A stretch of DNA of 64,000 nt from Candidatus Latescibacterota bacterium (GCA_965205485.1 OZ242180.1:320001-384000), one strand, 5' to 3'; counted from the first letter of the stretch, positions 1 to 16,850 are shown. Notes: a model not told the origin generated them from the sequence alone. Numbers and translations: made by a program.

Positions 1-249
1 ATCGGCTTCAGGAACGAGGAGGTTGACCGCATCCTGGAATCCTATCGACGGGAGTTCGATATGGACGAGAGAATCCGGCTCTACCGGCGTTTCCAGGAAA
101 TCCTGTACAACGAGCAACCCTATACGTTTCTCTGGAAATCACGCGCCGCCACTTCCTACAGCAGGCGCTTTGCGGGGGACAGCTGGTACGCCGGTGGCCC
201 GGATACCCAGGAATGGTGGGTAGGCGCTTCCAACCGGTTGTATCAATAG
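1..249 (+). CDS. oppA: ABC peptide transporter substrate-binding protein, C-terminal end (5'-truncated by window)
   Basis: Frame 1 is open from base 1: IGFRNEEVDRILESYRREFDMDERIRLYRRFQEILYNEQPYTFLW, typical SBP family 5 C-terminus; lies upstream of oppBC-like genes. Confidence 0.8.
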   Translation: MGFRNEEVDRILESYRREFDMDERIRLYRRFQEILYNEQPYTFLWKSRAATSYSRRFAGDSWYAGGPDTQEWWVGASNRLYQ

Positions 250-480
250 AGTTGGCCCCAATAGGAAAAAACGGCATCCGGGCGTCGTGATAAAACCCTC
301 CGAAACAGGGAGTTAACGTCGTATGGAAGGACATCCTTTCAGTTGACGTCCAGTGACTTGGTGTATCCTGGTAATCCGCAGTTTAATCGCCTTTATCAAC
401 TTTCACACATTCGGTTTAACGTCCACGAAAACATACGAATCCTGGTTAACGGACGCCGGCACGGAGAGGCCTGAAGGCAG

Positions 481-1782
481 ATGATCCAGTACATCCTGCA
501 GCGCAGCCTGCTGATGATCCCGACGATGATCGGTATCACCCTGATCTCGTTCCTGGTCATGCATCTCGCTCCCGGAGACCCCGTGGACTTCTTTCTCGGC
601 GGCATGGCGGGGGAGGAGGGCATCTCGACAGAAGGGCAGTCCGATTTCGAAAAAACGCGCGAGGACCTTCGGCGGCAACTCGGCCTGGACCGGCCGGTTC
701 ACATCCAATACCTGAACTGGCTGTCCAGCCTGGTTCTGCACGTGGAGCCGCTCAACAACTTCGAACGCATGGGCCGCCGCGTCGACGTCTATCTCTCGAA
801 ACTGGACAGCGGGGAAAGAAGCGAGTTGGCAGCGCTTGAGAATAAGGCGCGTAAGGCCCGGTTTCTCAGGAGTTTCGAGAAACATCACCCGGACGAGGCG
901 GAAGCGCTCGTCCTTTCCTCTTTCTGGGAGAGCAAGACGGTCAAACTCGAGAAAAACTATGAGTACACCGGCGCCGGCCTGCTCCTCTTCCACCTCTTCG
1001 ACCGGCGCTTTATCACGCTCAATTTCGGCCGCTCCTTCAAGGATCAGCAGCCGGTCATCTCCCATATCCTCGCACGCGTGCCTATCACCATCGAAATCAA
1101 CGTCATCAGTCTGATCGTGGCTTACATCATCGGTCTGCCGCTGGGTATATGGCTGGCCGTGAAACAGGACACCCGGACCGACCGCGCGCTGACCACGGGA
1201 ACCTTCATCCTGTGGTCCATGCCTTCATTCTGGGTGGGCATGCTGCTCATCGTGTTTTTCTGCAACAAGGAATTCTTCTACTGGTTTCCGGCCTCCGGCA
1301 TCCAGTCGCTGGACGCCTCTTCCGAATGGGGATTCTGGCGGCTGTTGACGGACCACGCCCATCACATGGCCATGCCGGTCCTGGCCTCGAGCTACGCCAG
1401 CTTCGCGGGTCTTTCCCGGTTCATGCGGACCAGTATGCTGGAGAACATGAGGCTGGATTACGTACGCACGGCCCGCGCAAAGGGGCTTTCGGAAAAAGTC
1501 GTGGTCCTGAAGCACGTCTTCCGCAACTCGCTGATTCCCATCGTGACCATTCTGGCGAATCTGCTTCCGGCCATCATCGCCGGCTCGGTCTTCATCGAGA
1601 CCATCTTCACCATACCGGGGCTGGGGTATCTGGGCGTTCAATCCGTACTCGTGCGCGACTATCCGATGGTGATGGCCATTCTGACCATCGGTTCGTTTCT
1701 CTCGCTGCTGGGTATTCTTCTCGCGGACATCCTCCTGAAAGTCGTGGACCCGCGCATCGAGTTTTCCCGTCTTCAGGGATAG
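481..1782 (+). CDS. oppB: Oligopeptide/dipeptide ABC permease (OppB/DppB family)
   Basis: N-terminal YILQRSLLMIPT...APGDPV; EAA loop DYVRTARAKGLSEKVVVLKHVFRNSLIP; C-terminal RDYP...DPRI. Confidence 0.92.
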   Translation: MIQYILQRSLLMIPTMIGITLISFLVMHLAPGDPVDFFLGGMAGEEGISTEGQSDFEKTREDLRRQLGLDRPVHIQYLNWLSSLVLHVEPLNNFERMGRRVDVYLSKLDSGERSELAALENKARKARFLRSFEKHHPDEAEALVLSSFWESKTVKLEKNYEYTGAGLLLFHLFDRRFITLNFGRSFKDQQPVISHILARVPITIEINVISLIVAYIIGLPLGIWLAVKQDTRTDRALTTGTFILWSMPSFWVGMLLIVFFCNKEFFYWFPASGIQSLDASSEWGFWRLLTDHAHHMAMPVLASSYASFAGLSRFMRTSMLENMRLDYVRTARAKGLSEKVVVLKHVFRNSLIPIVTILANLLPAIIAGSVFIETIFTIPGLGYLGVQSVLVRDYPMVMAILTIGSFLSLLGILLADILLKVVDPRIEFSRLQG

Positions 1783-1786
1783 ATCC

Positions 1787-2857
1787 ATGCCTGACGCTAC
1801 AGCCCGCGACCTCAACGAACCGGACGTCGCAACGCCCGAACCCGAACCTGTCGAGGAGGGTCAGACCTACTCCAAACTGGTCTGGCGGCAGTTCAAGAAG
1901 AACCGTCCGGCCCTCATCAGCCTGGCGGCGATCGGCGTTCTCGCGTTCACGGCGGTGTTTGCAGATCTTCTCGCGGGCAACAAACCCTACTATATGGAGT
2001 ACAGGGGAAAGACCTATTTCCCGGCCTTTCGCCAGTATGCCGTTCATCTCGGGCTGGCCGACTGGCCGAAGCCGCTCAGACGAAGGAAGAATTTCAAACG
2101 TCTGAGGTCGGAATCCGCCATATTCCCGCCGGTTCCCTACGGTCCCAGCGACGTTAACCTCAGGGACAAGTACCAACCGCCCGGCGCAGCGCATTTCCTC
2201 GGTACGGATCGGCTGGGACGGGACGTGCTTTCGGGGCTGATCCATGGAACCCGTTACGCGCTCACGATCGGACTGGTCTCGGTGGCGATCTCGATGATTA
2301 TCGGCGTCGCCCTCGGCGCACTCGCGGGTTATTTCGGGGGCTGGACCGACCTGGTTCTCTCGCGTCTGTTCGAGCTCTGGGCCGCCATACCCACCCTCTT
2401 CCTGATCATCACGGTCGCCGCGTTCTTCCCGCCCAGCCTTTTCTTCGTGATGATCATTCTCGGCTTTACGGGATGGGTCGGGATCGCCAGGCTCACGAGG
2501 TCGCAGTTTCTGCAGGTAAGGAGCTACGACTTCGTTTCCGCGGCCAAGAGCCTGGGATACTCCAGCGGACGAATCATGTTCATCCACATTCTGCCGAACG
2601 CGATCGCGCCGGTACTCATTCCGGCTGCTTTCGGCGTGGCGGGGGCCATTTTGGCCGAGTCCGGCCTGAGCTTCCTCGGGATCGGCGTTCCCGCGGAGGC
2701 CATCACCTGGGGCGCGATACTGGCAGGCGCACGAAACAATACCGCGGCCTGGTGGCTGGTCATCGTACCCGGTTTCGCCATCTTTATCACCGTAACCCTT
2801 TACAACCTTTTGGGCGACGGCCTGCGAGACGCCCTGGACCCGAAGATGAAAGTTTGA
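1787..2857 (+). CDS. oppC: Oligopeptide/dipeptide ABC permease (OppC/DppC family)
   Basis: HFLGTDRLGRDVLS; FVSAAKSLGYSSGRIMFIHILPNA; ESGLSFLGIG; NLLGDGLRDALDP. Confidence 0.93.
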   Translation: MPDATARDLNEPDVATPEPEPVEEGQTYSKLVWRQFKKNRPALISLAAIGVLAFTAVFADLLAGNKPYYMEYRGKTYFPAFRQYAVHLGLADWPKPLRRRKNFKRLRSESAIFPPVPYGPSDVNLRDKYQPPGAAHFLGTDRLGRDVLSGLIHGTRYALTIGLVSVAISMIIGVALGALAGYFGGWTDLVLSRLFELWAAIPTLFLIITVAAFFPPSLFFVMIILGFTGWVGIARLTRSQFLQVRSYDFVSAAKSLGYSSGRIMFIHILPNAIAPVLIPAAFGVAGAILAESGLSFLGIGVPAEAITWGAILAGARNNTAAWWLVIVPGFAIFITVTLYNLLGDGLRDALDPKMKV

Positions 2858-2935
2858 AAAGCCGTGTGAAGACTCCGCAGGCCGTAGATCGTTGCCGCCG
2901 CCGGCGCGGCATGCCGGTTACGCAAATTTGAAGCC

Positions 2936-4057
2936 ATGGCTCATACGTACACACCGGGGCTGCGGGTCACCCGCAGGGCAACCATACGAAAGAGACGCCA
3001 GTTGCCGCTCGCAGGAGAGGTGCTGGTTTCTGAAGGGGAAACCGTGCAGCGCGACCGGGTGGTGGCCCGGACCGAACTGCCCGGCGACGTGACCACCCTG
3101 AACCTGGTCAACAGGCTGGGCGTCACCCCGGACGAACTCCCGGACTTCATGCTCAGGAAGGAGGGTGAGCCGGTCGAGTCGGGAGAGCCTCTGGCCGAGA
3201 CCCGCCCGTTCATCAAGTGGTTCAAAACCACGGTGGAATCGCCGGTTTCAGGCACCGTGGAAAGCGTGTCGCCCGTTACCGGCCAGGTTATTCTGCGGGG
3301 GCCGCCCCGACCCGTACAGGTCAGGGCGTACGTGGACGGCGCCGTTGTGGAAACCATTCCCGGCGAAGGGGTCGTCATCGAGACCGCCGGCGCATTCCTT
3401 CAGGGTATCTTCGGCATCGGCGGGGAAAGCTGGGGCGCTATCCATCCACTTGCCGCCACACCGGACGAGCGGCTCTCGGAAGACCGGATCGACGCCTCCT
3501 GTGCCGGCAGGATCTGCATCGCCGGAGGCCTGGTCACCCTGGACCTGATCCGGAAAGCGCGGGAAATCGGCGCGGCCGGCGTCATTGGCGGGGGCATCCG
3601 CGACCGCGACCTGCGGAGCCTTCTCGGTTACGACCTGGGCGTGGCCATCACCGGCACCGAGGAAATCGGTCTTACCGTCGTGGTTACCGAAGGATTCGGC
3701 GACATCGCCATGGCGACGAAGACCTTCGACATCCTGAACGAGAGAAACGGCGACGAGGCCTCGATCTCGGGCGCGACCCAGATACGAGCCGGCGTGCTTC
3801 GTCCGGAAATCATCGTTCCGGATACGGGAAGTACAGCGACCGCCGAGGAATCCGTCGCCACGGAAGGCCTTTCCGTAGGAGACCCGATCCGGACGATTCG
3901 GGCGCCCTTTTTCGGACAGACCGGTGTCGTCACGGCTCTGCCGTCCAAACTCGCGGCCGTTGAGTCGGAAGTTCGGGTACGTGTCCTTGAAGTTCAATTC
4001 GAGAACGGACAACAGGCCGTGATACCCCGCGCAAATGCCGAAAGGATCGAGGCATGA
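2936..4057 (+). CDS. Uncharacterised soluble protein with barrel-sandwich-hybrid-like repeats, PA-like middle region and KOW-like C-terminus
   Basis: 373-aa ORF with no hydrophobic span; GEVLVSEGETV, KEGEPVESGEPLAE, ESPVSGTVESV, AREIGAAGVIGGG, VGDPIRTIRAPFFGQTGVV. Confidence 0.75.
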   Translation: MAHTYTPGLRVTRRATIRKRRQLPLAGEVLVSEGETVQRDRVVARTELPGDVTTLNLVNRLGVTPDELPDFMLRKEGEPVESGEPLAETRPFIKWFKTTVESPVSGTVESVSPVTGQVILRGPPRPVQVRAYVDGAVVETIPGEGVVIETAGAFLQGIFGIGGESWGAIHPLAATPDERLSEDRIDASCAGRICIAGGLVTLDLIRKAREIGAAGVIGGGIRDRDLRSLLGYDLGVAITGTEEIGLTVVVTEGFGDIAMATKTFDILNERNGDEASISGATQIRAGVLRPEIIVPDTGSTATAEESVATEGLSVGDPIRTIRAPFFGQTGVVTALPSKLAAVESEVRVRVLEVQFENGQQAVIPRANAERIEA

Positions 4058-4107
4058 TGATTTGGAGCGTCCAGGCGCGCCTGATTAAAACCGCCAGGAG
4101 ACACGCA

Positions 4108-5289
4108 ATGGCGCATCTATTCCTCAGTTTCGCCCTTGCCATCGCTGCCGCGCCGGCCGCCGGCGGTTCGGCGCCCACCGACGTCCGGGCTTTCGACACG
4201 CCCAACGACCAGGGGCACAGCATCACGCTGACGTGGCGCCGCCTGGATTTCCTGCCGGACAGCGCGCGATATCGCATCGGCGTTTCCGAACAGGCGGACG
4301 GGCCGTTCCATCCGGTTGCGGAACTGGACCCCAAAACGGCTCCGACCATGGCCGACGAGGCGGTCACGTTCGGCAGGGGGAAGGAGAACCGCAACCACCA
4401 CTTCGTCCACATTGAATCCTACTTCGACCCTCTGGGACAAAACCGGATCCGGATCGAGAACGACCGGCCCTATTTCGTTCGCATCGGCGTCCACGGCGCG
4501 GGCTACACGGTTGTGGAAGCCCGTGCCCACGGCAACTGGTTCAACTGGACCAAGCGCAACAATTTTCTGCTGGCCGCGCTGTTCTCCATTCTGATCCTCG
4601 TCTATATCCGTCTCGCCCGGCGCAAAAATCTCTATATCCGGCGGCTGGCAGGACTGGACGCCCTGGACGAAGCCCTGGGTCGCGCAACCGAGATGGGTAA
4701 ACCGGTGCTTTTCGTCCACGGCCTTCAGGACATGGGCAGCCCCTCCACCATCGCCGCCGTGAATATTCTCGGACAGGTGGCGAAGCGAACCGCCGAATAC
4801 GATACCCTGCTCAAGGTTGGCAACCGGGATCCGATTGTGATGTCCGTGAGCCAGGAAGTGGTCAAGGAGTCTTGCATCGAAGCCGGACGACCCGACGCGT
4901 TCAACCCTGACAACGTCTTTCTGGCGGCCGCGGACCAGTTCAGCTACGCGGCCGCGCTCGATGGGCTGATGGTGCGGGAGAGGCCGGCGGCCAATCTTCT
5001 GATGGGGTATTTTTACGCCGAATCCCTGCTTCTGGCCGAGACCGGCTCGACGACCGGCGCAATTCAGATCGCCGCTACCGACGCCTATACACAGCTTCCG
5101 TTCTTCATCACAACCTGCGACTATACCCTGATGGGTGAGGAACTCTACGCGGCGAGCGCCTATCTCTCCAGAGATCCCAAACTGCTGGGAAGCCTGAAGG
5201 GCCAGGACCTGGGGAAGGGAATTCTCATCCTGATGCTGGTGCTGGGTTCCTTATTGGCCGGCATCGGCTTCTGGCCGATCCTGATCTGA
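4108..5289 (+). CDS. Membrane protein: signal peptide, FN3-like domain, TM helix, conserved alpha/beta domain (recalled as DUF6754-like)
   Basis: Signal-like MAHLFLSFALAIAAAPAAG; APTDVRAFDTPND...ITLTW; TM NFLLAALFSILILVYI; IRRLAGLDALDEALGRATEMGKP; GEELYAASAYL; C-terminal TM. Alternative start 4054. Confidence 0.75.
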   Translation: MAHLFLSFALAIAAAPAAGGSAPTDVRAFDTPNDQGHSITLTWRRLDFLPDSARYRIGVSEQADGPFHPVAELDPKTAPTMADEAVTFGRGKENRNHHFVHIESYFDPLGQNRIRIENDRPYFVRIGVHGAGYTVVEARAHGNWFNWTKRNNFLLAALFSILILVYIRLARRKNLYIRRLAGLDALDEALGRATEMGKPVLFVHGLQDMGSPSTIAAVNILGQVAKRTAEYDTLLKVGNRDPIVMSVSQEVVKESCIEAGRPDAFNPDNVFLAAADQFSYAAALDGLMVRERPAANLLMGYFYAESLLLAETGSTTGAIQIAATDAYTQLPFFITTCDYTLMGEELYAASAYLSRDPKLLGSLKGQDLGKGILILMLVLGSLLAGIGFWPILI

Positions 5290-5329
5290 CAGCATAGCAT
5301 ATACGTTCAATCCTTCGGGAGAAAACCGA

Positions 5330-5986
5330 ATGTACTTCCTGCAACGCACCCTGCCGCTCCTCGTTGCCTTTGCCGCGGGCGTGATCGGCATATTCACCTA
5401 TTATATCCCGGTTGCGCAGCCGGTGGAGATCACAACGTCCACGTGGTACCGGATCATCGCCGCGTTCGCGCTCTTCCTGGGAATCCACAGTCTGTTGCAG
5501 ATGCACTGGAACCGGGTCAAACGCAAACAGGCCGGATGGGCTTTCAGCGCCGTCGTCTTTGTCGGCTTCATCGTTACGATCCTGCTTGCCCTCTACAACA
5601 ACGGCAGCGGACCCCTGCAGCCGCTCGCCGGGGGCGACGGTCTGGATCTGAACTGGATGTATACGCACATTCACGTCGCCGGCGGCGCCACGATGTTCTC
5701 TCTGCTCGCGTTCTTTATCGCCTCCGCCGCCTACCGCACGTTTCGCGCCCGGTCGGCCGAGGCCGTTGTGCTTCTCGTTGCCGCGCTGCTCGTCATGCTG
5801 GGCCGGGTGCCCATCGGCGCGCTGATCTCCGAACACCTGCCCGCCATTTCACAGTGGCTGATGGCCACGCCCAACCTCGCCGCACGACGCGGCATTCTGC
5901 TGGGCGTGAGCCTGGGCGCAATCGCCACGGCACTTCGCATCATATTCGGTATCGAACGATCCTATCTTGGAGAAGAGGGACAATGA
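5330..5986 (+). CDS. Polytopic integral membrane protein, unknown function
   Basis: 218 aa, about 6 hydrophobic spans; ATMFSLLAFFIASAAYRTFRAR; GGGAG RBS upstream. Confidence 0.8.
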   Translation: MYFLQRTLPLLVAFAAGVIGIFTYYIPVAQPVEITTSTWYRIIAAFALFLGIHSLLQMHWNRVKRKQAGWAFSAVVFVGFIVTILLALYNNGSGPLQPLAGGDGLDLNWMYTHIHVAGGATMFSLLAFFIASAAYRTFRARSAEAVVLLVAALLVMLGRVPIGALISEHLPAISQWLMATPNLAARRGILLGVSLGAIATALRIIFGIERSYLGEEGQ

Positions 5987-6810
5987 TCGAGCGCCTCCTG
6001 AACATCGACCGCCGCATTGTGTACCTTGCCGTCTTTCTGGCTGTATGTATTCCTCTGCTTATCGGGTTCGAACTGCCCATCAAGGCCACACCAAACGTCC
6101 GCGCGGTGTACGACACCGTCGAGAGCCTGGCCGGAAATCCGGATGCCGTCGTGCTCATCTCCTTCGATTACGGACCCAGTTCGCAGCCGGAGCTCCAGCC
6201 CATGGCCCTGGCCATTCTGCGCCACTGCTTCAGCCGGAACATACGGGTGGTGGGCGTGACCCTCATTACAGAAGCCGTAGGACTTGCCATGCAGGCTTTC
6301 GAGACGGCGGCGACGGAATACGGGCGGGAAAACGGGACTGACTATGCGTTCCTCGGTTTCAAGGCGGGCGGCCCGATCCTGATCCTGAACATGGGTCAGG
6401 ACCTGCACGCCGCGTTTCCCGAAGACATCCGGGGCGCCGCCACCAGCGAAATGCCTCTCACCCGCAATCTGCGTTCGTTGAAGGATTTCGATTACGTGAT
6501 CGATCTGGCCGCCGGGTACCCCGGCGTGGACGAATGGATCGCTTACGGGCAGGAACGTTACAGGTTCCCCCTCGGCGCCGGTTGTACCGCGGTAATGGCG
6601 CCGGATTTCTTCCCCTTCCTTCAATCCCGGCAGCTCAACGGCCTTATCGGCGGGCTGGCGGGCGCGGCGGAATACGAAGCGCTCGTGGGCAAGAAAGGCC
6701 TGGCCGTAAGCGGCATGCGTCCACAGTCCGTCGCACATATCGTCATCATCGGGTTCATCCTGCTGGGCAACGCGGTCTACTTCCTGGGCCGCGGCGCTTC
6801 GAGGACGTAA
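5983..6810 (+). CDS. Membrane-anchored alpha/beta-domain protein (N- and C-terminal TM), unknown function
   Basis: ATG 5983 overlaps the upstream stop (ATGA); MIERLLNIDRRIVYLAVF; SFDYGPSSQPELQPM; GLIGGLAGAAEYE. Confidence 0.8.
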   Translation: MIERLLNIDRRIVYLAVFLAVCIPLLIGFELPIKATPNVRAVYDTVESLAGNPDAVVLISFDYGPSSQPELQPMALAILRHCFSRNIRVVGVTLITEAVGLAMQAFETAATEYGRENGTDYAFLGFKAGGPILILNMGQDLHAAFPEDIRGAATSEMPLTRNLRSLKDFDYVIDLAAGYPGVDEWIAYGQERYRFPLGAGCTAVMAPDFFPFLQSRQLNGLIGGLAGAAEYEALVGKKGLAVSGMRPQSVAHIVIIGFILLGNAVYFLGRGASRT

Positions 6811-6822
6811 AGGTACATCGGT

Positions 6823-7566
6823 ATGCAAAGAGAACACCTCGTCTTCCCGATCTTCCTTCTGCTTTTTGCGGCCGTGAATGTCTATCTCCTGGCCGCCGGC
6901 AGCCTGGAAGCGAGCTGGTCGGGGTTCGGCATCATCCTCGCCGCGGGGATCACGCTGGCTCTGTACAGCTTTCTGTACAGGGACAATCCGCTCTTCAAGC
7001 TGGCCGAGCATCTCTACGTGGGCGTCGTCGCCGCATACGAACTCGCTCTGGTCTGGTACCAGAGCATCCTCGTGGACGTCGTCAATCCCCTGTTCCGACC
7101 GCATCCTGACGCCGGCGTCGACTGGTGGGTGATCGTTCCGGCGTTGCTCGGTCTCTTCCTGATGACCCGCTTTGTCGGCAGGGCGGTATGGCTCAGCCGC
7201 ATCTCGTTCGCCTTCTTCGTGGGACTCGGCGCCGGGTTGGCCATCCCCCGCCGCGTCGCCGCGTTCATCATCGAACAGATCGAGCCCACCATCCGCCCGT
7301 TTTCACAGGCGTCGGCGGACTTCGGGTGGGCCGTGCTGGATCCGGCGATCATCCTGATCGGCGTGTTGAGCGTACTGATTTACTTTTATTTCTCCGTTGA
7401 ACACAAAGGGGTTGTGGGCGGTATTTCCAGGGTCGGCATCTATTTCCTGATGGTTTCCTTCGGCGCTTCATTCGGTTATACCGTCATGGCGCGCATCTCC
7501 CTGCTCATCGGACGCGTGGATTTCCTGCTGGAAGACTGGCTGAATCTGAATCCGCCCCTCTTCTGA
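6823..7566 (+). CDS. Polytopic integral membrane protein, unknown function
   Basis: 247 aa, about 7 hydrophobic spans; [44 protein letters not shown]. Confidence 0.8.
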
Positions 7567-7675
7567 CCCGCGTGTACCGGCGGTGAGAGATTCGGCGGTA
7601 CGAATTGCTCTCGCGCGCACGCGCCAGGTTCGGACGGAATCCGGAAAGATCGCATTATACACAAATGGCAGGTTT

Positions 7676-8674
7676 ATGTCGGAACCCCTCCTAACTGTCA
7701 GAGATCTGAAAACATACTTCCATACGGACGGCGGTGTCGCCAGGGCTGTGGACGGGGTCTCCTTCACGCTGAAGAAGGGCGAAACCCTGGGCCTGGTGGG
7801 AGAGTCAGGCTGCGGCAAGAGCGTCACGTCTCTGTCCGTAATGCGTCTGGTACCCGAACCGCCGGGGGAAATCGTCTCGGGCGAGATCCGGTTCAACGGA
7901 CGCGACCTGCTGAGTCTGGACGAGGCCGCTCTCCAGGGCGTGAGGGGCAACGACGTCGCGATGATTTTCCAGGAGCCGATGACCAGCCTCAACCCGGTTT
8001 TCACCTGCGGAGACCAGATTGACGAAGCCGTAATACTCCATCAGGGTCTCGGCAGGGACGCCGCCCGGTCCGTCACGGTGGACATGCTGAACCTGGTCGG
8101 CATTCCGGATCCCGACCAGCGGGCAAACGAGTATCCTCACCAGCTTTCCGGGGGGATGCGCCAGCGGGTGATGATTGCAATGGCCCTGTGCTGCAATCCT
8201 GAACTCCTCATTGCCGACGAACCGACCACGGCGCTGGATGTGACCATACAGGCCCAGATTCTGGAACTTCTGGACCGGCTTCAACGAGAATTGGGGATGG
8301 CCGTCCTGATGATTACCCACGATCTGGGCGTCATTGCGGAGGTGGCGGACCGCGTGGCCGTCATGTATGCCGGAAAGATCGTGGAAACCGGAACGGTGGA
8401 TGAGATTTTCGCCAATCCGCAGCACCCCTACACGGTGGGACTGCTGGAGTCCATCCCCACGCTCAATGAAGAGAAAAGCCGGCTGTCAGTCATTCCGGGA
8501 ACCGTGCCCGACGCCACCCGATTTCCCGCCGGATGCCGTTTTGCGCCGAGGTGTTCATTGGCGGAGGACGTTTGTGCAGCGGACGAGCCGCGCCTGGAGC
8601 CGACCTCGGGCGGCCGCCTTGTGGCATGCTGGATGGTCGAAGATTATCCATCTCCCGTGACGCGATCGGATTGA
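7676..8674 (+). CDS. oppD: Oligopeptide ABC transporter ATP-binding protein
   Basis: GESGCGKS Walker [25 protein letters not shown] and C-terminal Cys motif. Confidence 0.95.
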
Positions 8675-8675
8675 C

Positions 8676-9665
8676 ATGTCCAGACCACTCCTCGAAGTCC
8701 ACGGCCTCAAGAAATACTTCCCGATCACCCGCGGGGTATTCTCCCGGACCGTCGGCTACGTTAAAGCCGTAGACGGCGTCTCTTTCACGATGCAACGGGG
8801 CGAAACCCTGGGCCTGGTGGGGGAATCCGGATGCGGCAAGACAACCGCGGGCAGGAGCATCCTGCGGCTGATCGAAGCCACGGCGGGCCGCGTACTGTTC
8901 AACGGCACAGACGTCTTCGGCCTGAAAAGCTCCGAACTCAGAGCCGTTCGACGGCGCATGCAGATCATCTTCCAGGACCCCTACAGTTCGCTGAACCCGC
9001 GCATGACGGTGGGTGGCATGCTGTCCGAAGCGCTGAAAATCCACAAGCTCACGGACGGGAGCGACACCCGGGAACGCGTGGCCGAACTCCTGGAAACCGT
9101 GGGCCTCCGGCCGGAATACGCCCGCAGGTATCCCCACGAATTCAGCGGTGGGCAGCGCCAGCGTATCGGCATCTCCCGGGCCCTGGCCGTGAATCCCGAT
9201 TTCATCGTTGCGGACGAACCCGTATCGGCCCTGGATGTGTCGATTCAAGCCCAGATCATCAATCTTCTCCAGGACCTTCAGAGCCGGTTCGGCCTTACCT
9301 TCCTCTTCGTCGCGCACGACCTGAGCGTTGTCAAACACATCTCCAACCGCATCGCGGTGATGTACCTCGGACGCATCGTGGAGATCGCGGAAAGCGGTAC
9401 CCTCTGCGGCAATCCGCAGCACCCCTATACCCGCGCCCTGCTATCGGCCGTACCCGAGCCGGACCCGCGCGTAAGGAAACAGCGCACGGTATTGACCGGT
9501 GACGTCCCAAGCCCGGCCAACGTCCCCTCCGGCTGCCCGTTTCATCCGCGCTGCCCCGAACGGGAAGACGCCTGCACGAAGATCGTGCCCGAACTGCTCG
9601 AAATCGACGGTACCCACAGCGTCGCGTGTATTCTTCGGACCGGGCAGCACCTCCGTACGGCCTGA
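8676..9665 (+). CDS. oppF: Oligopeptide ABC transporter ATP-binding protein
   Basis: [30 protein letters not shown]...GCPFHPRC. Confidence 0.95.
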
Positions 9666-9823
9666 AATTGGAACTGTTCGTTGTCTTCGCAAGTCTAATT
9701 GTATACTTTTAAGGCCGAACCGCGGCCGGCGCCGGCAAGACGAGATTATCAACCTGCGCCCACGCGCGTCTTACGGGCGCCCGGCGGCCGCCCATTTCAA
9801 CACCCGAAGTCCAGGAGAAGCAC

Positions 9824-12800
9824 GTGAACCGATCCACGATCCTTTCCATCTGCCTCTTCGGCGCTGTACTAATCGGCATTTCGTCCGGCGCGCCGTCCCC
9901 TTCCGACGCCCAGCAGTTTCCCAGAAAATTCAAACACGGACCCACCGTGGACATTGCCGACGTGCCGTTGAACCGCACCATGCCCGATTATACATGGGAG
10001 CGGCACGAGCGTCATTTCTTCCCTTCCCTGCTCGGCCTGCACGTGCCGGGCGCACGGGCAATCCGCACGAAGTATTTCGCCATCTATTACGCGGAAGCGG
10101 AGAATACGGCGCGCCGCATCGCGGAAATCGCGGACGACACCTTCGAGAAGATATCCCGCCATTACCCCGGTTCCATAGAACGCTACGCCCCGATTCACGT
10201 GGTCGTTTCCGACATTGACATTCTCGGAAATGCCTTCTCCTTCTACCTTGGAAATCTCATCTCGTTCGGTTCCACGCCCCTCAACTGGGACTCGCGAGGC
10301 ACCCACGACTGGGTGCGCGACGTTTTTACCCACGAACTCACCCACCACATCACGCTCAAGGCCTCCCACAACAGCATGCCCTTCGTATTCGGCCTTCTCG
10401 GCAGCAGCCGCTCCAACCAGAACCCGGACTTCGGCTTCTTTCTCCCGCTCTACCACTCGGCCATGCCGAACTGGTACGCGGAAGGTATCGCACAATTCGA
10501 AGCTGAAGAGTACGGGGGTGACCTCTGGGACACCCACCGGGATATGATCCTGCGGATGGCCGCGCTCGAAGACGACCTGCTTTCATATACCGACATGAAC
10601 GTCTTCGGCAAAGACGGCTTCAAGTCGGAACAGGTCTACAACCAGGGCTATGCATTTCTGAACTACCTGGCCGACACCTACGGTCCGGATTCCGTGCGAG
10701 CCATGTCCCGCGACCGGCCGATCGTCAACTTCAAATCCTCCGTCAAGAAGAGCACGGGAATCTCGGCGCCCGATCTTTATGACGAATGGACCACGCATCT
10801 CGATCGCAGATACGGCGCCCTTGCGGACTCCATCCGGGCTGCCGGAGAGCGCGAGGGCGAACTGCTCTCCGACCGGGGCGACGTGGAACACTTCCCCACT
10901 TACTCGCCAGACGGCACGAAGATGGCGTTCATCAGCAACGAGGGCGGCGACTACGCGATCATGGAAATGCTCGTGATGGACCTGGCCACGCGAAAACTGA
11001 CAAAGGTGGCCAGGAGCCGGAAGTACGGGAAATACGTCAACCTGCCCTTTTCCTGGACACCCGATGGCAACAGCCTGGTATACAGCAAATCCGTCGGTGG
11101 CAACTGGGACATCTTCATCTACGATCTCACCACGCGCAAGGAGCGCCGGGTCACCGTCGGTCTGCGCGGGAGAGACCCCGCCGTGTCTCCCGACGGAACG
11201 GAAATCGCCTTCGTGGGGAACCGGGACGGGACATCCAACCTCGGCATCGTGAACCTCGACGGCACGGACATCCGCTATCTGACCAACAACAACAACGGGA
11301 CGCAATACTATACGCCCAGGTGGACGGAAGACGGCAGCAGACTGCTGTTCAGCATCTTTCGAGGGGAAGACCGGGACATTGCCGTAATCAACGCGGACGC
11401 CACGCCCAGGCCGAAAAAGACCGACACGAAGAAAACCGCGAAAGAAGAGCTGGCCGAACGCATCGCCGAAAGGAAGAAAATCGAAACCGAGGTGGACAGC
11501 GCCCAGGCGGAGGCAGACAGCCTCGCGCTGGCGGACGCCGCGCGTCGCGACAGCATGGTCGCGTTCCCCGACAGCCTGGCCTATGCCAACAATGCGGGCT
11601 TCGAAGTGATCATCAATACACGGGCCGACGAACGCGACGCGGTATGGCTGCCCGGCGGCGGCGGAATCGTATACGCCTCCGACCGGACCGGTATCTTCAA
11701 CATCTACGCCCTTGACCTCACAACGGGCAGGCAGGAGCAGCTCACCAACGTGATCGGCGGCGCCTTTTCCCCCTCGGTTTCGCCCGATGGCAACGAAGTC
11801 CTCTACTCGGGATACCACGCCGCGAATTACAACATCTACCGCATCCGGAAGTCCGGCGCCGCCGAGGCCGCGGGGGCCGATTCCCTGGTGCGGGACTACA
11901 GCAGCATCTACAAGGGCAAGAAAGTCGGCGACCTGTTCAACACCGGACGGTACGCCCCCCGCCTGGCCTCCATCGGCGTCGTACCCATCCTGGTGCTTGG
12001 ACCGACCTTTATCGGCAACCGGTTCGGCCTGGATCAGCTGAGCGCGGGCGCGGAAGCCACCTGGGGAGACCTCCTAGGAAGCGACAATATCTACGCCGGC
12101 TTTACCATTGGCAAGAACCTGAAGAAAGGCGTGGATCTGAACTCGAATTTTTCCGCGTTCTACACGAAGGGCCTGCCGGCGGTTCACACCGAAGACCGGA
12201 CGTACGCTCCCAGGTTTTTCATTGGCGCCAGCCAACAGACCATCAACAGCCATATCGATCGCGGTATCGTGGATTCCCGCCGCGACACCTCCTCGGGCAC
12301 GTTGCAGATCGTGATCGACGACACGCTCCGTCTGGTTCCCGGGGTGACCAGTTTCACCAACCTCTCGCTCACCCAGGAAGACATGTACAAAAACCTCTTC
12401 AGCGATTTTGTGGTGGGCGTTGAAGCCAGCATCGGCAGGCGTCAGGTGCTGTCAATGACCTGGGGCCACAGGAGGTACAAGGAGAGTACCCAAACGAAAC
12501 AGGTCATACTGGACAGCACGAGGCTGGTCCAGAACAGAGCCGGCGTCATTACGGATATAACCGATCAGATTCCGGGCCTGGGCGAAGACGAGGTTGTTTT
12601 CGACGATTTCCTGTATCGCGACCTCAGCTTCTTCAAGAGCAACGATGTCACGGTCGGCTGGCGATATTTCAATTTCCTGCCCGCGAAGGACATGTTCGTG
12701 AACCCGTCCAGGGGCAGGGCGATCACCTTGAGGTACCGGCGCATCAACGCCTCCGTCACCGACTCGCTTTTCAGGTCCCAGCTGAATCAGGACGGCGTTG

Positions 12801-13390
12801 CCGCCCCGACCTACATGTCGGACCCGACCAAGCTGGGTATCAACGAGTACATCTTTTCCTGGAATGAATTCATCGGTCTGCCTGGAAGAGCCACGCTGGC
12901 GCTGCAGGGATTCCTCGCCTACAAGGACAAGCCGATCAAAGACGTCCAGGAGAACACCTCCTCCGCCGAGGGCGTGTTCTACTATCCGCTGAGGTATTAC
13001 CTGGGCGGACTCGGCACACTCCGAGGGTATCCGTATTTCTCCACGGCCGGCGGGAAGGCCCTGCTCGCGAGAGCAAGCCTGACCTTTCCAATATTCAAAC
13101 ATGCGGCCAAAGAACTGCCGCCCTTCCACTTCGACAAGATCTACGGGACGCTCTTTGTGGAAACCGGCGCCACCGGGAATTTTGAAAGTCTCCGCGCATG
13201 GCTTGATTCAGAAGACAGGTTCAAACGTTCCGCTTTCCTGACCGACTGGGGTTTCGAGCTCCGCATGCAGATGTTCACACACTACCGCATCCCCCTTTAT
13301 GGTTATTTTCAGATCGCCTTTCCCACCCGCGATACCATTCAGGGCCGCGAGATCGACAAGAACCGGATCTACTTCGGCCTGACTATCTGA
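9824..13390 (+). CDS. Exported protein: MA-clan zinc-peptidase-like domain, TolB/PD40 beta-propeller, C-terminal Omp85/BamA-like barrel
   Basis: GTG start after AGGAG; signal peptide; HELTH plus WYAEGIAQ; repeated SPDG/TPDG PD40 motifs; YLGGLGTLRGY barrel-loop motif; ends RIYFGLTI. Confidence 0.8.
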   Translation: MNRSTILSICLFGAVLIGISSGAPSPSDAQQFPRKFKHGPTVDIADVPLNRTMPDYTWERHERHFFPSLLGLHVPGARAIRTKYFAIYYAEAENTARRIAEIADDTFEKISRHYPGSIERYAPIHVVVSDIDILGNAFSFYLGNLISFGSTPLNWDSRGTHDWVRDVFTHELTHHITLKASHNSMPFVFGLLGSSRSNQNPDFGFFLPLYHSAMPNWYAEGIAQFEAEEYGGDLWDTHRDMILRMAALEDDLLSYTDMNVFGKDGFKSEQVYNQGYAFLNYLADTYGPDSVRAMSRDRPIVNFKSSVKKSTGISAPDLYDEWTTHLDRRYGALADSIRAAGEREGELLSDRGDVEHFPTYSPDGTKMAFISNEGGDYAIMEMLVMDLATRKLTKVARSRKYGKYVNLPFSWTPDGNSLVYSKSVGGNWDIFIYDLTTRKERRVTVGLRGRDPAVSPDGTEIAFVGNRDGTSNLGIVNLDGTDIRYLTNNNNGTQYYTPRWTEDGSRLLFSIFRGEDRDIAVINADATPRPKKTDTKKTAKEELAERIAERKKIETEVDSAQAEADSLALADAARRDSMVAFPDSLAYANNAGFEVIINTRADERDAVWLPGGGGIVYASDRTGIFNIYALDLTTGRQEQLTNVIGGAFSPSVSPDGNEVLYSGYHAANYNIYRIRKSGAAEAAGADSLVRDYSSIYKGKKVGDLFNTGRYAPRLASIGVVPILVLGPTFIGNRFGLDQLSAGAEATWGDLLGSDNIYAGFTIGKNLKKGVDLNSNFSAFYTKGLPAVHTEDRTYAPRFFIGASQQTINSHIDRGIVDSRRDTSSGTLQIVIDDTLRLVPGVTSFTNLSLTQEDMYKNLFSDFVVGVEASIGRRQVLSMTWGHRRYKESTQTKQVILDSTRLVQNRAGVITDITDQIPGLGEDEVVFDDFLYRDLSFFKSNDVTVGWRYFNFLPAKDMFVNPSRGRAITLRYRRINASVTDSLFRSQLNQDGVAAPTYMSDPTKLGINEYIFSWNEFIGLPGRATLALQGFLAYKDKPIKDVQENTSSAEGVFYYPLRYYLGGLGTLRGYPYFSTAGGKALLARASLTFPIFKHAAKELPPFHFDKIYGTLFVETGATGNFESLRAWLDSEDRFKRSAFLTDWGFELRMQMFTHYRIPLYGYFQIAFPTRDTIQGREIDKNRIYFGLTI

Positions 13391-13570: not shown

Positions 13571-14440
13571 ATGCTTCCTCTCATTCGATCCCTCCGGCCG
13601 AACCAGTGGATAAAGAGCGTGTTCGTACTCGCCCCGCTCGTCTTTTCGGAACACCTGCTCGACGGGCGCTATCTGTTGCGCAGCGGCGGCGCATTCGTTC
13701 TCTTCTGCCTCATGTCGAGCGCGGTCTACCTTCTGAATGACATTCGAGACGTCGAATCCGATCGGCGTCACCCCGAGAAGCGCAACCGGCCCATTGCATC
13801 GGGGCTGTTAAGCCCTGGCGCGGCGTCCGCAGCCGCCATCGTTATCGCCCTCTCGGCGCTTCCGCCGGGTTTTCTGCTGAGTACCTCATTTGGATGGGTT
13901 CTGTTGGCCTACGGGCTGATGAACGTCGCCTATTCGCTCTATTTGAAACACGTCGTCATTCTGGACGTGATGATCATCGCTACCGGATACCTGTTGCGGG
14001 CCATCGCGGGCGCACTGGTCATCAACGTGGCGATCTCCTCGTGGCTCATCCTGTGCACGGTGTTGCTGGCGCTGTTCATGGGTTTTGTCAAACGCCGGCA
14101 GGAACTGATCCTCCTGGAAGCCGGCGCGGCCGAACACCGGCGCATTCTGGATGAATACACGCCGCGGTTCCTGGACCAGATGATCGCCGTCGTCACGGCC
14201 GGCGCTCTCGTCTCGTACGCGCTCTACACTATGTCACCCGACGTCGCACAGAAACTCGGAACGCCGCATCTCAATCTCACCATTCCCTTCGTGATCTACG
14301 GGCTTCTGCGCTATCTCTATCTGGTCTATGCCAGGAACCAGGGCGGTAATCCATCCTCAACCATTCTGGGCGACCCGTCGCTGATGATCAACGGCGGCCT
14401 CTGGTTTCTTGCCGTCTTTGCCCTGCTCTATTTCAAATAA
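13571..14440 (+). CDS. UbiA-family prenyltransferase, polyprenyl-phosphate phosphoribosyltransferase-like
   Basis: LRPNQWIKS; YLLNDIRDVESDRRHPEKRNRPIASG; YSLYLKH; KRRQE; multiple TM helices. Confidence 0.88.
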   Translation: MLPLIRSLRPNQWIKSVFVLAPLVFSEHLLDGRYLLRSGGAFVLFCLMSSAVYLLNDIRDVESDRRHPEKRNRPIASGLLSPGAASAAAIVIALSALPPGFLLSTSFGWVLLAYGLMNVAYSLYLKHVVILDVMIIATGYLLRAIAGALVINVAISSWLILCTVLLALFMGFVKRRQELILLEAGAAEHRRILDEYTPRFLDQMIAVVTAGALVSYALYTMSPDVAQKLGTPHLNLTIPFVIYGLLRYLYLVYARNQGGNPSSTILGDPSLMINGGLWFLAVFALLYFK

Positions 14441-14502
14441 ACCGGACCTTACCAGCGTTACCGCGCCGACCCCCAGGTCGGCAACGCTCGAAAGCGCTCA
14501 TT

Positions 14503-15774
14503 ATGCAGAGCCGGGTAGCTGTTCTGAAAACCAGACCTGAAACGGTCTTGAGAGACTATCACAGGCTCTTGAACCTGGCGGGGTACCAGGACGTCCTGGA
14601 CAGGAAGCTCGACACCGCCCTCAAGGTCAATATTTCATGGCACTTTTTCTATCCGGGCAGTTCCACGACACCATGGCAACTCGAAGGCGTGATCCGCGCG
14701 ATGGCAAGGGACGGCTATCGCAAAGACCTGATCCACGCCTGCCACAACCGAACGGTCGTCATTGACGCCCGGCTGGGTGAGCGGGAGAACAAGCAGGTCC
14801 ACGTTGTCAACGCCCACGGCCTGCGGAACATCCACCTCTACGAAGGCGAGGAGTGGATCCACATACGCGATGCAGTGGGCAATCTCGCGGACGGGTTCCT
14901 GTGCCTGAACCAGGTCTACCCCGACGGCTTCCATATTCCCCGCCGCCTGATCGGGGAAAACATCGTCCACCTGCCCACTGTAAAGACGCACGTCTTTACG
15001 ACCACAACCGGAGCAATGAAAAATGCCTTCGGCGGCCTCCTCAACGAACGGCGCCACTGGACCCATCCGGTTATCCACGAGACCCTCGTGGACCTGCTGA
15101 TGATTCAGAAGAAAATCCATCCCGGCGTATTCGCGGTGATGGACGGGACTTTCGCCGGAGACGGGCCCGGTCCCCGATGCATGATACCCTATACCAAAAA
15201 CGTCATCCTTGCGAGCGCCGACCAGGTCGCCATCGATGCGGTTGCCGCCAGGATGATGGGGATGGATCCGCTATCCATCAAATACATCCGGCTCGCCCAC
15301 GACATGGGCCTGGGTTGCGGCGACCCGCGCGGGATCCGGATTTTGGGTGATACCTCCGCGGCCGAAGAAAACTGGCAATTCGCGGGTCCCTTCCGCAAAA
15401 TGACGTTCGCATCCCGAATGCAGCACAAGATCTATTGGGGACCACTCAAGAAGCCTGTCGAGTGGTCTCTCAAGACCTTCCTTGCGCCGTGGTCCTACCT
15501 GGCCAGCGTCCTCTACCACGACACCTTCTGGTATCCGTTTCTGGCCCGAAAACGAATGCGGGATGTTCTGGAAAGCGAGTGGGGCCGGCTCTTCAGGAAC
15601 TGGGAGCGTCTCGGCTCCACGGACGACGGCTACGACACCGTGGGAGATACCGCCGCCGAGATCCGCCGGACCGGATTCAACGCATTCAGGCGCTCTCTTG
15701 GCGTCCTGGTTTCCTGCATTCGAGAGGCCCCGGAATTCCTCACGCTGCGAAAGCGGCAGATGCATGAGAAGTAG
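14503..15774 (+). CDS. DUF362-domain protein
   Basis: LKVNISW; HLPTVKTHVFTTTTGAMKNAFGG; VMDG...GPGP; ASADQVAIDAVAARMMG. Confidence 0.8.
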   Translation: MQSRVAVLKTRPETVLRDYHRLLNLAGYQDVLDRKLDTALKVNISWHFFYPGSSTTPWQLEGVIRAMARDGYRKDLIHACHNRTVVIDARLGERENKQVHVVNAHGLRNIHLYEGEEWIHIRDAVGNLADGFLCLNQVYPDGFHIPRRLIGENIVHLPTVKTHVFTTTTGAMKNAFGGLLNERRHWTHPVIHETLVDLLMIQKKIHPGVFAVMDGTFAGDGPGPRCMIPYTKNVILASADQVAIDAVAARMMGMDPLSIKYIRLAHDMGLGCGDPRGIRILGDTSAAEENWQFAGPFRKMTFASRMQHKIYWGPLKKPVEWSLKTFLAPWSYLASVLYHDTFWYPFLARKRMRDVLESEWGRLFRNWERLGSTDDGYDTVGDTAAEIRRTGFNAFRRSLGVLVSCIREAPEFLTLRKRQMHEK

Positions 15775-16850
15775 TGCAACCTCCACGATCCATGCGCGCG
15801 CCTTCCTCCGAGCCGACGATCGAGGTCATCAGACGGATCGCTCCCACCAACCCGGGCGGCGGGTCCCCGGTTGAAGATGTCCGACCCATCCCCGGTCACC
15901 CTGACGTCTGGATAGTCACCCTCGTCGACGGTTCATTCCTCGTTGCCAAACAACACGCTTTCGCTCCTCTGGTACGCGGCGAACCTCACGACCTGCTGGC
16001 CGTTGAACGGCTCGCGCACGCACGCCTGTCCGGGGCGCCAGTCCCGACGCTATATGCTGCCGACAGTGACCACGACCTGGTCTTTTTCGAGTGGTGCGGC
16101 GACCGCACGCTCGACGACGTCTGCCAGGAGGGGGCTGCGGGAGTCTACGGCCGTCTGGTCGTTGATGGCTTTACCCGGATTCAATCCGCGTTTCACGAAC
16201 ATGTCGACGATTTCGCCCCGCGTACCTTTCCGGGGTGTTACCCGCAGGACCTGCGCCGGACGTGGCGGCGAACAACCCGAAATCTCGCCGGATCCCTGAC
16301 CAGCTTCGCCGAACGGCTTTCTCGATCCGTGCATCGAAGGCGTTTCACCGCGGAATCAGATACGCTAACCGAGCTTCTCCAATTCCTCGAACAGGCAGCG
16401 CCGCTGGCCGGTCCAACCGACTACCACGCACGCAACATCGTCATCAACCGGGCCACGCGATCGCTCCGTTTCATCGAATTCTCCAAGGTCGGCTGGGACT
16501 GGCCCGAACGCCGGCTCACACAGTATACAACCTCCCACGGCGCCGGGCGACTGACCGGCGGAACTGTCAGCGTGCTGACGCCTGCCCTGACCGGGCGATA
16601 TGCCGCGCTTGCATCGAAATACCGCGAGGAGCCACCCGAGCAGATTGCGGCCCTTCTGGACGGGCACCATTTCGTCTTTCACCTCCTGGCCGCTCAATCT
16701 CTCCTCGACGCCCTGCCCGATCCCCGGCATCCGCTGCTGGACAGGTGGCGGAACCCCGAGGCGCGCCTGGAACAACTGCGACGAATCCTCTCGATGCCCC
16801 TCTGCGACGATCCCCGGACGTCCGAGCTTCGATCCTGCTTTAAATCCTGA
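15774..16850 (+). CDS. Aminoglycoside-phosphotransferase/kinase-like fold protein
   Basis: VAK lysine; PVPTLY; TDYHARN catalytic-loop-like; IEF at the DFG position; start overlaps the upstream stop. Confidence 0.6.
   Translation: MQPPRSMRAPSSEPTIEVIRRIAPTNPGGGSPVEDVRPIPGHPDVWIVTLVDGSFLVAKQHAFAPLVRGEPHDLLAVERLAHARLSGAPVPTLYAADSDHDLVFFEWCGDRTLDDVCQEGAAGVYGRLVVDGFTRIQSAFHEHVDDFAPRTFPGCYPQDLRRTWRRTTRNLAGSLTSFAERLSRSVHRRRFTAESDTLTELLQFLEQAAPLAGPTDYHARNIVINRATRSLRFIEFSKVGWDWPERRLTQYTTSHGAGRLTGGTVSVLTPALTGRYAALASKYREEPPEQIAALLDGHHFVFHLLAAQSLLDALPDPRHPLLDRWRNPEARLEQLRRILSMPLCDDPRTSELRSCFKS

Follow-up and report, generated by a model that had tools for sequence, protein, structure and literature searches.

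Between oppC and oppD of an oligopeptide (Opp) uptake gene run, the genome of Candidatus Latescibacterota bacterium (GCA_965205485.1 OZ242180.1:320001-384000, a stretch of 64,000 nucleotides referred to here as the window) carries five genes, named A to E, and the locus raises the question of whether these belong to the peptide importer or to a system of their own. The first-pass annotation of this DNA proposed an undescribed five-gene membrane-complex cassette inside an oligopeptide ATP-binding cassette (ABC) operon. Judged from gene order and co-occurrence, the conserved unit is larger than A-E, namely an eight-gene module I-H-G-A-B-C-D-E, of which I, H and G lie upstream of the window. Genes A to E together with G, which encodes an ATPase, very probably constitute a functional unit independent of Opp. 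The module as a whole is read, tentatively and somewhat short of probable, as a new class of ATP-driven small-solute transporter that works independently of Opp.

The evidence for a unit comes mainly from synteny. Eighty genome loci were mapped through B (the best 80 of 584 confirmed) and 80 metagenome loci through E (the best 80 of 576), and among the 126 mapped loci holding all four genes the order B-C-D-E on one strand is found in 125; the sole exception is a short contig spanning two tandem copies. The first-pass annotation described this gene set as recurring in uncultured bacteria and archaea; synteny across bacterial phyla supports such recurrence, and the neighbourhood survey it called for shows the set to be syntenic elsewhere and tied to a GlmL-like ATPase gene. 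Latescibacterota and anammox bacteria are among the lineages with the module; source names also include WOR-3, Armatimonadetes and Xenobia, and Atlas clusters add Fidelibacterota and Chloroflexota. DUF6754, the conserved domain of B, occurs in 126 of 151 genomes of the host phylum, some of them of 1-3 Mb, and in 28 of 101 Planctomycetota, with the module mostly single-copy, and was detected in none of 14 model-organism control genomes. A profile of D gathers 4,889 clusters at 50% identity. No B homologue was found on plasmids, and searches of PHROGs gave no meaningful match.

G and A track the four membrane genes. A strong full-length match of G to PF13941 was present in 26 of 28 DUF6754-positive and 2 of 25 DUF6754-negative host-phylum genomes (a sample of 28 of the 126 positives and all 25 negatives, in which the four exceptions are 57-87% complete). 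Gene A was present in 24 of 26 DUF6754-positive and none of 20 DUF6754-negative Planctomycetota (26 of the 28 positives and 20 of the 73 negatives being sampled), and in 2 of the 25 DUF6754-negative host-phylum genomes, both incomplete. In most loci A lies directly after G, even when split from BCDE, and in Brocadiae-type genomes with a detached BCDE it stands elsewhere, beside G, in five of five. Another lineage has the order I-H-B-C-D-E-G-A, with a B that lacks its ectodomain. Several loci hold two tandem BCDE cassettes, 38-56% identical within a genome, and across L146, L150 and L151 each subunit follows its own cassette, so that B-C-D-E duplicate as a block; at L146 and L151 a single G-A pair precedes both cassettes.

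Within the window, the first-pass annotation had noted five co-directional genes separated by short gaps or overlaps, with no obvious terminator or composition shift, and these descriptions hold (Table 1). A and B overlap by 4 bases if the ATG at 4054 is used, a start less likely than 4108, where a GGAGA ribosome site is found; B and C are separated by 40 bases, C and D overlap by 4 (ATGA at 5983), D and E are 12 apart, and the flanking gaps measure 78 bases (oppC-A) and 109 bases (E-oppD). GC content is 0.57-0.66 in A-E against 0.58-0.63 in oppB, oppC, oppD and oppF. A scan of window positions 1-10000 gave 7 terminator-like sites against 8.6 in shuffles, none of them in an intergenic gap; the two inside A-E (3888 and 5750) both fall within coding sequence. 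Differences from close orthologues in the three genes compared (A, C and E) lie mainly at the third codon position, those of C relative to L009 being distributed 9/5/76 over the codon positions with 73 synonymous and 10 non-synonymous codons. Each of the five genes is single-copy in the 5.13-Mb host genome. Their products are of the predicted types: a soluble multidomain protein (A), two membrane-tethered alpha/beta proteins (B and D) and two proteins with 6-7 transmembrane (TM) helices (C and E). The hidden Markov model (HMM) searches that had been suggested for each gene identify B as a DUF6754 protein and leave A, C, D and E without a Pfam or NCBIfam match above cut-off. As for the GlmL/MutL-like ATPase gene that the first-pass annotation had placed near such sets and declared absent here, it is indeed associated with the set and missing from the window, yet it is present just upstream: G ends 1,942 bases before window base 1, directly 5' of oppA and in the same gene run. 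The host order is thus lipoate-ligase-like gene, I, H, G, oppA, oppB, oppC, A, B, C, D, E, oppD, oppF.

Table 1. Genes of the module and of the interleaved opp set, with the predicted domains of protein A. Plain numbers are window positions; numbers with the prefix G000:C1 refer to the host contig. Z and rmsd (root-mean-square deviation) values are from VIA structure comparison.
Feature	Coordinates	Strand or placement	Description
I	G000:C1:315528-315968	outside window, upstream	146 aa, two predicted TM helices, no family match
H	G000:C1:315934-316281	outside window, upstream	115 aa, no family match
G	G000:C1:316274-318058	outside window, upstream	594 aa, PF13941 GlmL-like ATPase
oppA, 3' end	1-249 (whole gene G000:C1:318408-320249)	+	family-5 substrate-binding protein, PF00496 254 bits
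oppB	481-1782	+	permease; PF00528, PF19300
oppC	1787-2857	+	permease; PF00528, PF12911
A	2936-4057	+	373 aa; soluble partner of GlmL-like ATPase G
A, barrel-sandwich hybrids	residues ~11-150		Z 7.5, rmsd 2.1-2.7 over 64 residues to NqrA/RnfC
A, swivelling beta/beta/alpha domain	residues 152-296		Z 9.3, rmsd 2.7, 105 residues to phosphotransferase system (PTS) enzyme I; Z 9.1-9.6 to RraA
A, KOW/SH3-like domain	residues 311-373		Z ~8 to KOW domains
B	4054-5289	+	411 aa; DUF6754 (PF20539) protein
C	5330-5986	+	218 aa; 6-TM membrane subunit without known family
D	5983-6810	+	275 aa; Rossmann-like alpha/beta domain, TM helix at each end
E	6823-7566	+	247 aa; 6-7-TM membrane subunit without known family
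oppD	7676-8674	+	ABC ATPase; PF00005, PF08352; likely common to several Opp permeases
oppF	8676-9665	+	ABC ATPase; PF00005, PF08352

G is the most readily classified component of the module. It matches PF13941 with 432 bits, is homologous over residues 7-478, and conserves the motifs DCGSTTTK, DIGGATTD and GSGG (phosphate-1, phosphate-2 and adenosine), which we take to be those of an ASKHA (actin/Hsp70-fold) ATPase; weak matches to hydantoinase A (24.7 bits, cut-off 22.9) and BcrAD_BadFG support this assignment. Across 86 sequences it retains at least 63% identity, with H239, H378, H425, C478 and C485 invariant. A sequence search of the PDB with G gave no match at E <= 10. Over residues 7-478, with its ASKHA motifs, G resembles the GlmL/MutL proteins of glutamate (methylaspartate) mutase and the Or-4 family, and its PF13941 score would fit a true B12-mutase reactivase to which the membrane genes are unrelated passengers. 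Such a role is exceedingly improbable, however, as G falls below three equivalog cut-offs (NF040745, 234 vs 475; NF040744, 215 vs 600; TIGR01319, 167 vs 204), carries about 115 extra C-terminal residues relative to the GlmL/Or-4 families, is paired with A, and tracks DUF6754 and a four-gene membrane unit. Glutamate mutase E (PF06368) was found in none of 25 module-bearing genomes, with a weak control signal in Haloferax volcanii, which also argues against B12 reactivation. PF09043 (lysine/ornithine aminomutase) was detected in none of five genomes in a search where no control genome gave a signal, and PF02286 (B12 dehydratase) in none of five in a search run without a positive control. The labels "MutL" and "glutamate mutase L" are probably wrong for many of the genes that bear them. 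The supplements of PMC7438415 list Kuenenia KSMBR1_1057 "mutL" among hypothetical genes with unchanged expression of ~35-100 reads per kilobase per million; that label does not distinguish G from DNA-repair MutL, and the entry is not used as evidence.

The hydantoinase A match and the invariant histidines and cysteines of G would also suit a membrane enzyme or envelope-biogenesis machine, in which G activates a substrate with ATP in the manner of the hydantoinase/oxoprolinase family and BCDE handle a lipid- or cofactor-linked substrate, perhaps one related to lipoate. A lipoate-ligase-family gene adjoins the module in the host and at L044, L136, L146, L150, L151 and L156, LipA is encoded at L145 and GcvP at L146, and lipoate-related genes occur upstream or downstream (also L002:9437-10312). 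The host ligase, however, is the only copy and follows fabH-fabD-fabG-acpP-fabF, so that it looks like a housekeeping gene; of the 80 metagenome loci, a good number of which are short, just 5 have a ligase, A carries no lipoyl Lys, and the scan of neighbouring genes brought up no partner of the hydantoinase B type. Taken together, an enzymatic role of this kind is rather unlikely.

Protein A, the fixed neighbour of G, is predicted by AlphaFold2 (AF2) with a mean predicted local distance difference test score (pLDDT) of 85.5 and resolves into three domains (Table 1). Its central domain resembles PTS enzyme I, but residues 152-296 hold no invariant or near-invariant His that could act as phospho-acceptor, and no Lys of the protein is invariant, K97 being lost in distant orthologues, so that the hallmark of a biotinyl or lipoyl acceptor is likewise missing. 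Because it has neither a conserved phospho-His nor a lipoyl-Lys, A reads as an adaptor. Family matches stay below cut-off (PF00364, 18.6 bits vs 22.1; RnfC_N, 17.8 bits), the PDB sequence search returned weak RraA/KOW matches only, and Foldseek searches with the models of A and D brought up no specific match. The top 50 VIA rows contain domains of enzyme I, RraA and PA type and no dehydratase reactivase structure. No internal homology was detected between A and G. A second, divergent pair, G'-A', is present in four Planctomycetota genomes (L223:7387-10322, L224:5391-8332, L225:2001-5017 and L226:2050-4976).

These features bear on whether the module might relay or remodel rather than transport. 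In such a transmembrane signalling or remodelling machine, D and the B ectodomain would sense an outside cue and G-A would use ATP to switch or chaperone a target in the cytoplasm, with no solute moved. The RraA-like swivel and KOW/SH3 domains of A are typical interaction domains without conserved catalytic His or Lys, the G'-A' pair exists on its own, and the B ectodomain is variable and dispensable, all of which such a machine would accommodate. A simple relay would nevertheless not need two subunits of 6-7 TM helices in which numerous Gly, Ser and charged residues are invariant, and no kinase, cyclase or regulator recurs in the module; this explanation is therefore considered unlikely.

The membrane proteins themselves resemble little that is known. 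Hydropathy gives B a signal peptide and 2 TM helices, C 6, D 2 and E 6-7. B matches DUF6754 (PF20539, a family without described function) with 379.7 bits against a cut-off of 27, over model positions 2-248 of 257. It consists of the signal peptide, a variable Fn3-like ectodomain, a TM helix at 170-188, a very conserved alpha/beta domain and a second TM helix at 389-407. The ectodomain is missing in some orthologues, and 258-aa forms without it exist; some homologues are named "fibronectin type III domain-containing" by NCBI, and among the 120 longer B homologues listed, DUF6754 is the sole useful named domain in precomputed Pfam. Thirty columns are invariant in 63 B sequences, including many Glu and K388, and C355 is the single invariant Cys among B-E. 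Conserved motifs include F-S-x-L-A-F-F-x-x-S-A-A-x-R-x-F-R, G-R-x-P and G-I-E-R-x-Y-L-G in C, and Y-S-F-L-Y-x-D-N-P-x-F-K-x-x-E and F-G-A-x-F-G-Y-T-x-M-x-R-x-S-L-L-I-G-R in E. PDB sequence searches at E <= 10 gave no match for B, C or E and noise for D.

D is modelled by AF2 with high scores (pLDDT 97.1; predicted template modelling score, pTM, 0.92) as a Rossmann-like domain of six strands with a TM helix on either side. The best VIA match of D is MTH777 (Z 10.3-10.7, rmsd 3.6, 136 residues), followed by carbon monoxide dehydrogenase (CODH) epsilon, RCK and SDR proteins with Z 8-9.4, all of them generic likenesses. In the ESM Atlas D matches unnamed clusters only, and the B core has no usable named match. 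Extra domains in 20 long D variants comprise CARDB, HEAT and one weak match. E70 of D is invariant, and H252 and N263 are conserved polar residues of its second TM helix. Family-averaged Lys/Arg counts (3.1 and 3.2 at the two termini of D), read by the positive-inside rule, would place both ends of D inside and its domain outside, and the conserved domain of B inside. As a side observation, D alone is duplicated, in tandem or nearby, at L016, L018, L142 and L176, the L016 and L018 copies being ~60% identical to the D of the window, a hint that D is free to vary within an otherwise fixed module.

Another reading makes the module a primary ion pump for Na+, K+ or H+, driven by the ASKHA ATPase and serving energy conservation or ion homeostasis. 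A mostly single-copy module, present in 126 of 151 phylum genomes and kept in autotrophic anammox bacteria, would fit such a function, as would the likeness of the A N-terminus to NqrA/RnfC barrels and the tied matches of D to RCK/KTN (Z 8-9). Within the predicted TM cores, however, few acidic residues are conserved, no redox cofactor motif is present, and the fold matches are tied and generic, all of which makes an ion pump quite improbable.

By eye, the B core and D both read TM-(helix-strand)x6-helix-TM, with opposite sidedness, and hhalign aligns them colinearly, pairing K388 with H252 at E 0.1-0.2. Inverted paralogy of the two is unsupported: the local score was reached by 7 of 60 block-shuffled nulls, and the global score of 20.8 by 2 of 75 shuffles, while an unrelated window of G scored 21.6. 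No paralogy was detected between C and E.

In the favoured reading of the module as a solute transporter, a single membrane complex of ~16-17 TM helices would be assembled from B, C, D and E, and the conserved domain of B, on the cytoplasmic side, would be the docking site for G together with its constant partner A. ATP-driven domain closure of G-A may then pull the complex through a conformational cycle, by analogy with the way dehydratase reactivases remodel their target. The pathway would run through C and E, the Rossmann-like domain that D is predicted to expose outside may serve as a tethered binding or gating domain, and the substrate would likely be a small, broadly needed solute. In favour of this reading, polar or charged side chains are conserved within or next to the TM helices of all four proteins (K388 of B; H59 and R159 of C; H252 and N263 of D; D54, N55, E62, H194 and R224 of E). 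A fuller version, possible but somewhat more doubtful, holds that this is a class of primary active transporter apart from the ABC, P-type and rotary types, powered by an actin/Hsp70-fold ATPase that works like a reactivase and used by many uncultured phyla and anammox bacteria; a pseudo-symmetry of its core is conceivable, in which B and D, as paralogues of ancient origin and inverted topology, contribute one Rossmann-like domain to each side of the membrane. We know of no solute transporter driven by an ASKHA-fold ATPase.

A functional precedent is offered by the reactivase of glycerol or diol dehydratase. PMC7674605 describes the alpha subunit of glycerol dehydratase reactivase as comprising an Hsp70-like ATPase domain, a linker, an insert and a swivelling domain. 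G and A together would supply the ASKHA ATPase and the swivelling beta/beta/alpha domain found there in one chain, and the likeness is one of presumed working. Unlike in the reactivase, these domains are divided between two genes, A adds the hybrid-barrel and KOW domains, and the target is likely a membrane complex and not a B12 enzyme.

Several observations weigh against the transporter reading. Neither Pfam, NCBIfam nor PDB sequence searches matched B, C or E to a transporter family or a solved structure, and a binding-domain role for D is a guess, since its fold matches are to generic, mostly cytoplasmic nucleotide-binding proteins. Genes adjoining the module are diverse and give no clue to a substrate. 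The genomes counted include relatives and so are not independent of one another; the co-occurrence counts therefore express linkage and are not a statistic. In the G'-A' pair, whose A' is devoid of a KOW domain, the surrounding stretch covered holds no membrane genes, so that a G-A pair need not adjoin membrane genes and can apparently serve other targets. The independence from Opp is in turn challenged by the repeated closeness of opp genes to the module within Latescibacterota, by one Planctomycetota locus (L214) with opp genes after the module, and by three genomes in which oppDF stands beside E without an orthologue of the host's oppB.

These last observations would favour the explanation nearest to the original framing, in which A-E serve the Opp importer as accessory subunits, or make up a permease that OppDF powers, for the uptake or processing of peptides. 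In a midpoint-rooted tree of concatenated B-E with 147 single-cassette tips, only a single clade (19 tips, support 1.00) has oppABC between G and A, and this clade is nested among loci in which G adjoins A; other Latescibacterota clades have oppDF after E, or oppA before I and oppBC ~9 kb further downstream. Of the 77 complete genome loci, a sample with a bias towards close relatives, 47 have opp genes in the vicinity. Among metagenome loci that extend 3 kb or more beyond E the figure is just 2 of 32, and at the Brocadia- or Scalindua-titled (anammox) loci no opp genes were seen. The module has its own ATPase, and in G258 and G259 the oppD orthologue is far from it. The retention of oppDF beside E can be explained otherwise, because a shared Opp ATPase could serve the other oppB paralogues without adjacent oppD that the host and the three genomes contain. 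Moreover, oppA, oppB, oppC, oppD and oppF form a complete ordinary importer, whereas A-E lack any family-5 substrate-binding protein, BPD_transp_1 or ABC domain, and most module loci outside Latescibacterota have no opp. An accessory role is accordingly very improbable. Since opp lies inside the module in one clade, is rare at metagenome loci and is absent from anammox loci, the opp genes would represent a regular peptide importer interleaved with an older module and not its host, possibly for shared regulation in Latescibacterota, and the description as a cassette inside an opp operon is not upheld. A purely peptide-catabolic role is disfavoured as well, because the module is kept in autotrophic anammox bacteria and its neighbouring genes are unrelated.

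Two other known systems share single features with the module. Energy-coupling factor (ECF) transporters combine a shared energising module with several membrane components, and one ATPase module likewise stands here beside two paralogous membrane cassettes; unlike in ECF systems, the ATPase is of the ASKHA and not the ABC type, and HMM searches found no A-, T- or S-component family in A-E or G. Rnf and Nqr are multi-gene membrane operons, with NqrA/RnfC barrels resembling the N-terminal one of A, but B-E have no Pfam, NCBIfam or PDB-sequence match to them and no conserved Cys cluster motifs. Apart from DUF6754 and the motifs of ASKHA ATPases, none of the known families considered is matched in all of its defining features, and the module appears new as a system. 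The claim of an undescribed, conserved multi-gene membrane module thus stands, no characterised complex being matched by HMM or PDB sequence. A full-text literature search, to which subscription papers and bioRxiv supplements did not belong, found no paper with "DUF6754" or "PF13941", and listings for other terms showed nothing related to the system. The conservation of G, the fixed B-C-D-E order, the breadth of occurrence in the host phylum and Planctomycetota and the thousands of D-family clusters give the module its weight, as a large component of the membrane biology of uncultured and anammox bacteria that still awaits an explanation.

Further observations concern insertions into the module and its surroundings. 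In one clade (L126, L132, L134 and L145), A and B are separated by one or two inserted Tll0287-like genes (Pfam assignments for L126 and L145). At the anammox loci L029, L035, L037, L050 and L070 the gaps often hold four-helix-bundle (23S rRNA IVP), IS200, DUF559 or PD-(D/E)XK genes, with the module genes intact. In the host, a repeated intergenic element of ~166 bp occupies the gap between the lipoate-ligase-like gene and I (G000:C1:315358-315523), the G-oppA gap and, partly, window positions 250-480; it has more than 100 BLAST matches in the host genome, up to 96-98% identity, and its copies are inserted in module gaps. Close relatives have G and oppA just ~20 bases apart. An Rfam search over 15.3 kb upstream gave no match. 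Downstream of oppF, window positions 9824-13390 encode a 1,188-aa exported protein with a peptidase MA-like HExxH motif, WD40/TolB-like propeller repeats and a long C-terminal region, a protein that follows oppF in several Latescibacterota clades. Positions 13571-16850 hold a UbiA-family decaprenyl-phosphate phosphoribosyltransferase-like gene, a DUF362 gene and a kinase-like open reading frame. At L227, from the genome of L031, oppA precedes the module and oppB-oppC lie ~9 kb downstream, behind genes for a TonB-receptor-like protein, a 1,096-aa exported protein and a PorV-like protein (labels read by eye).

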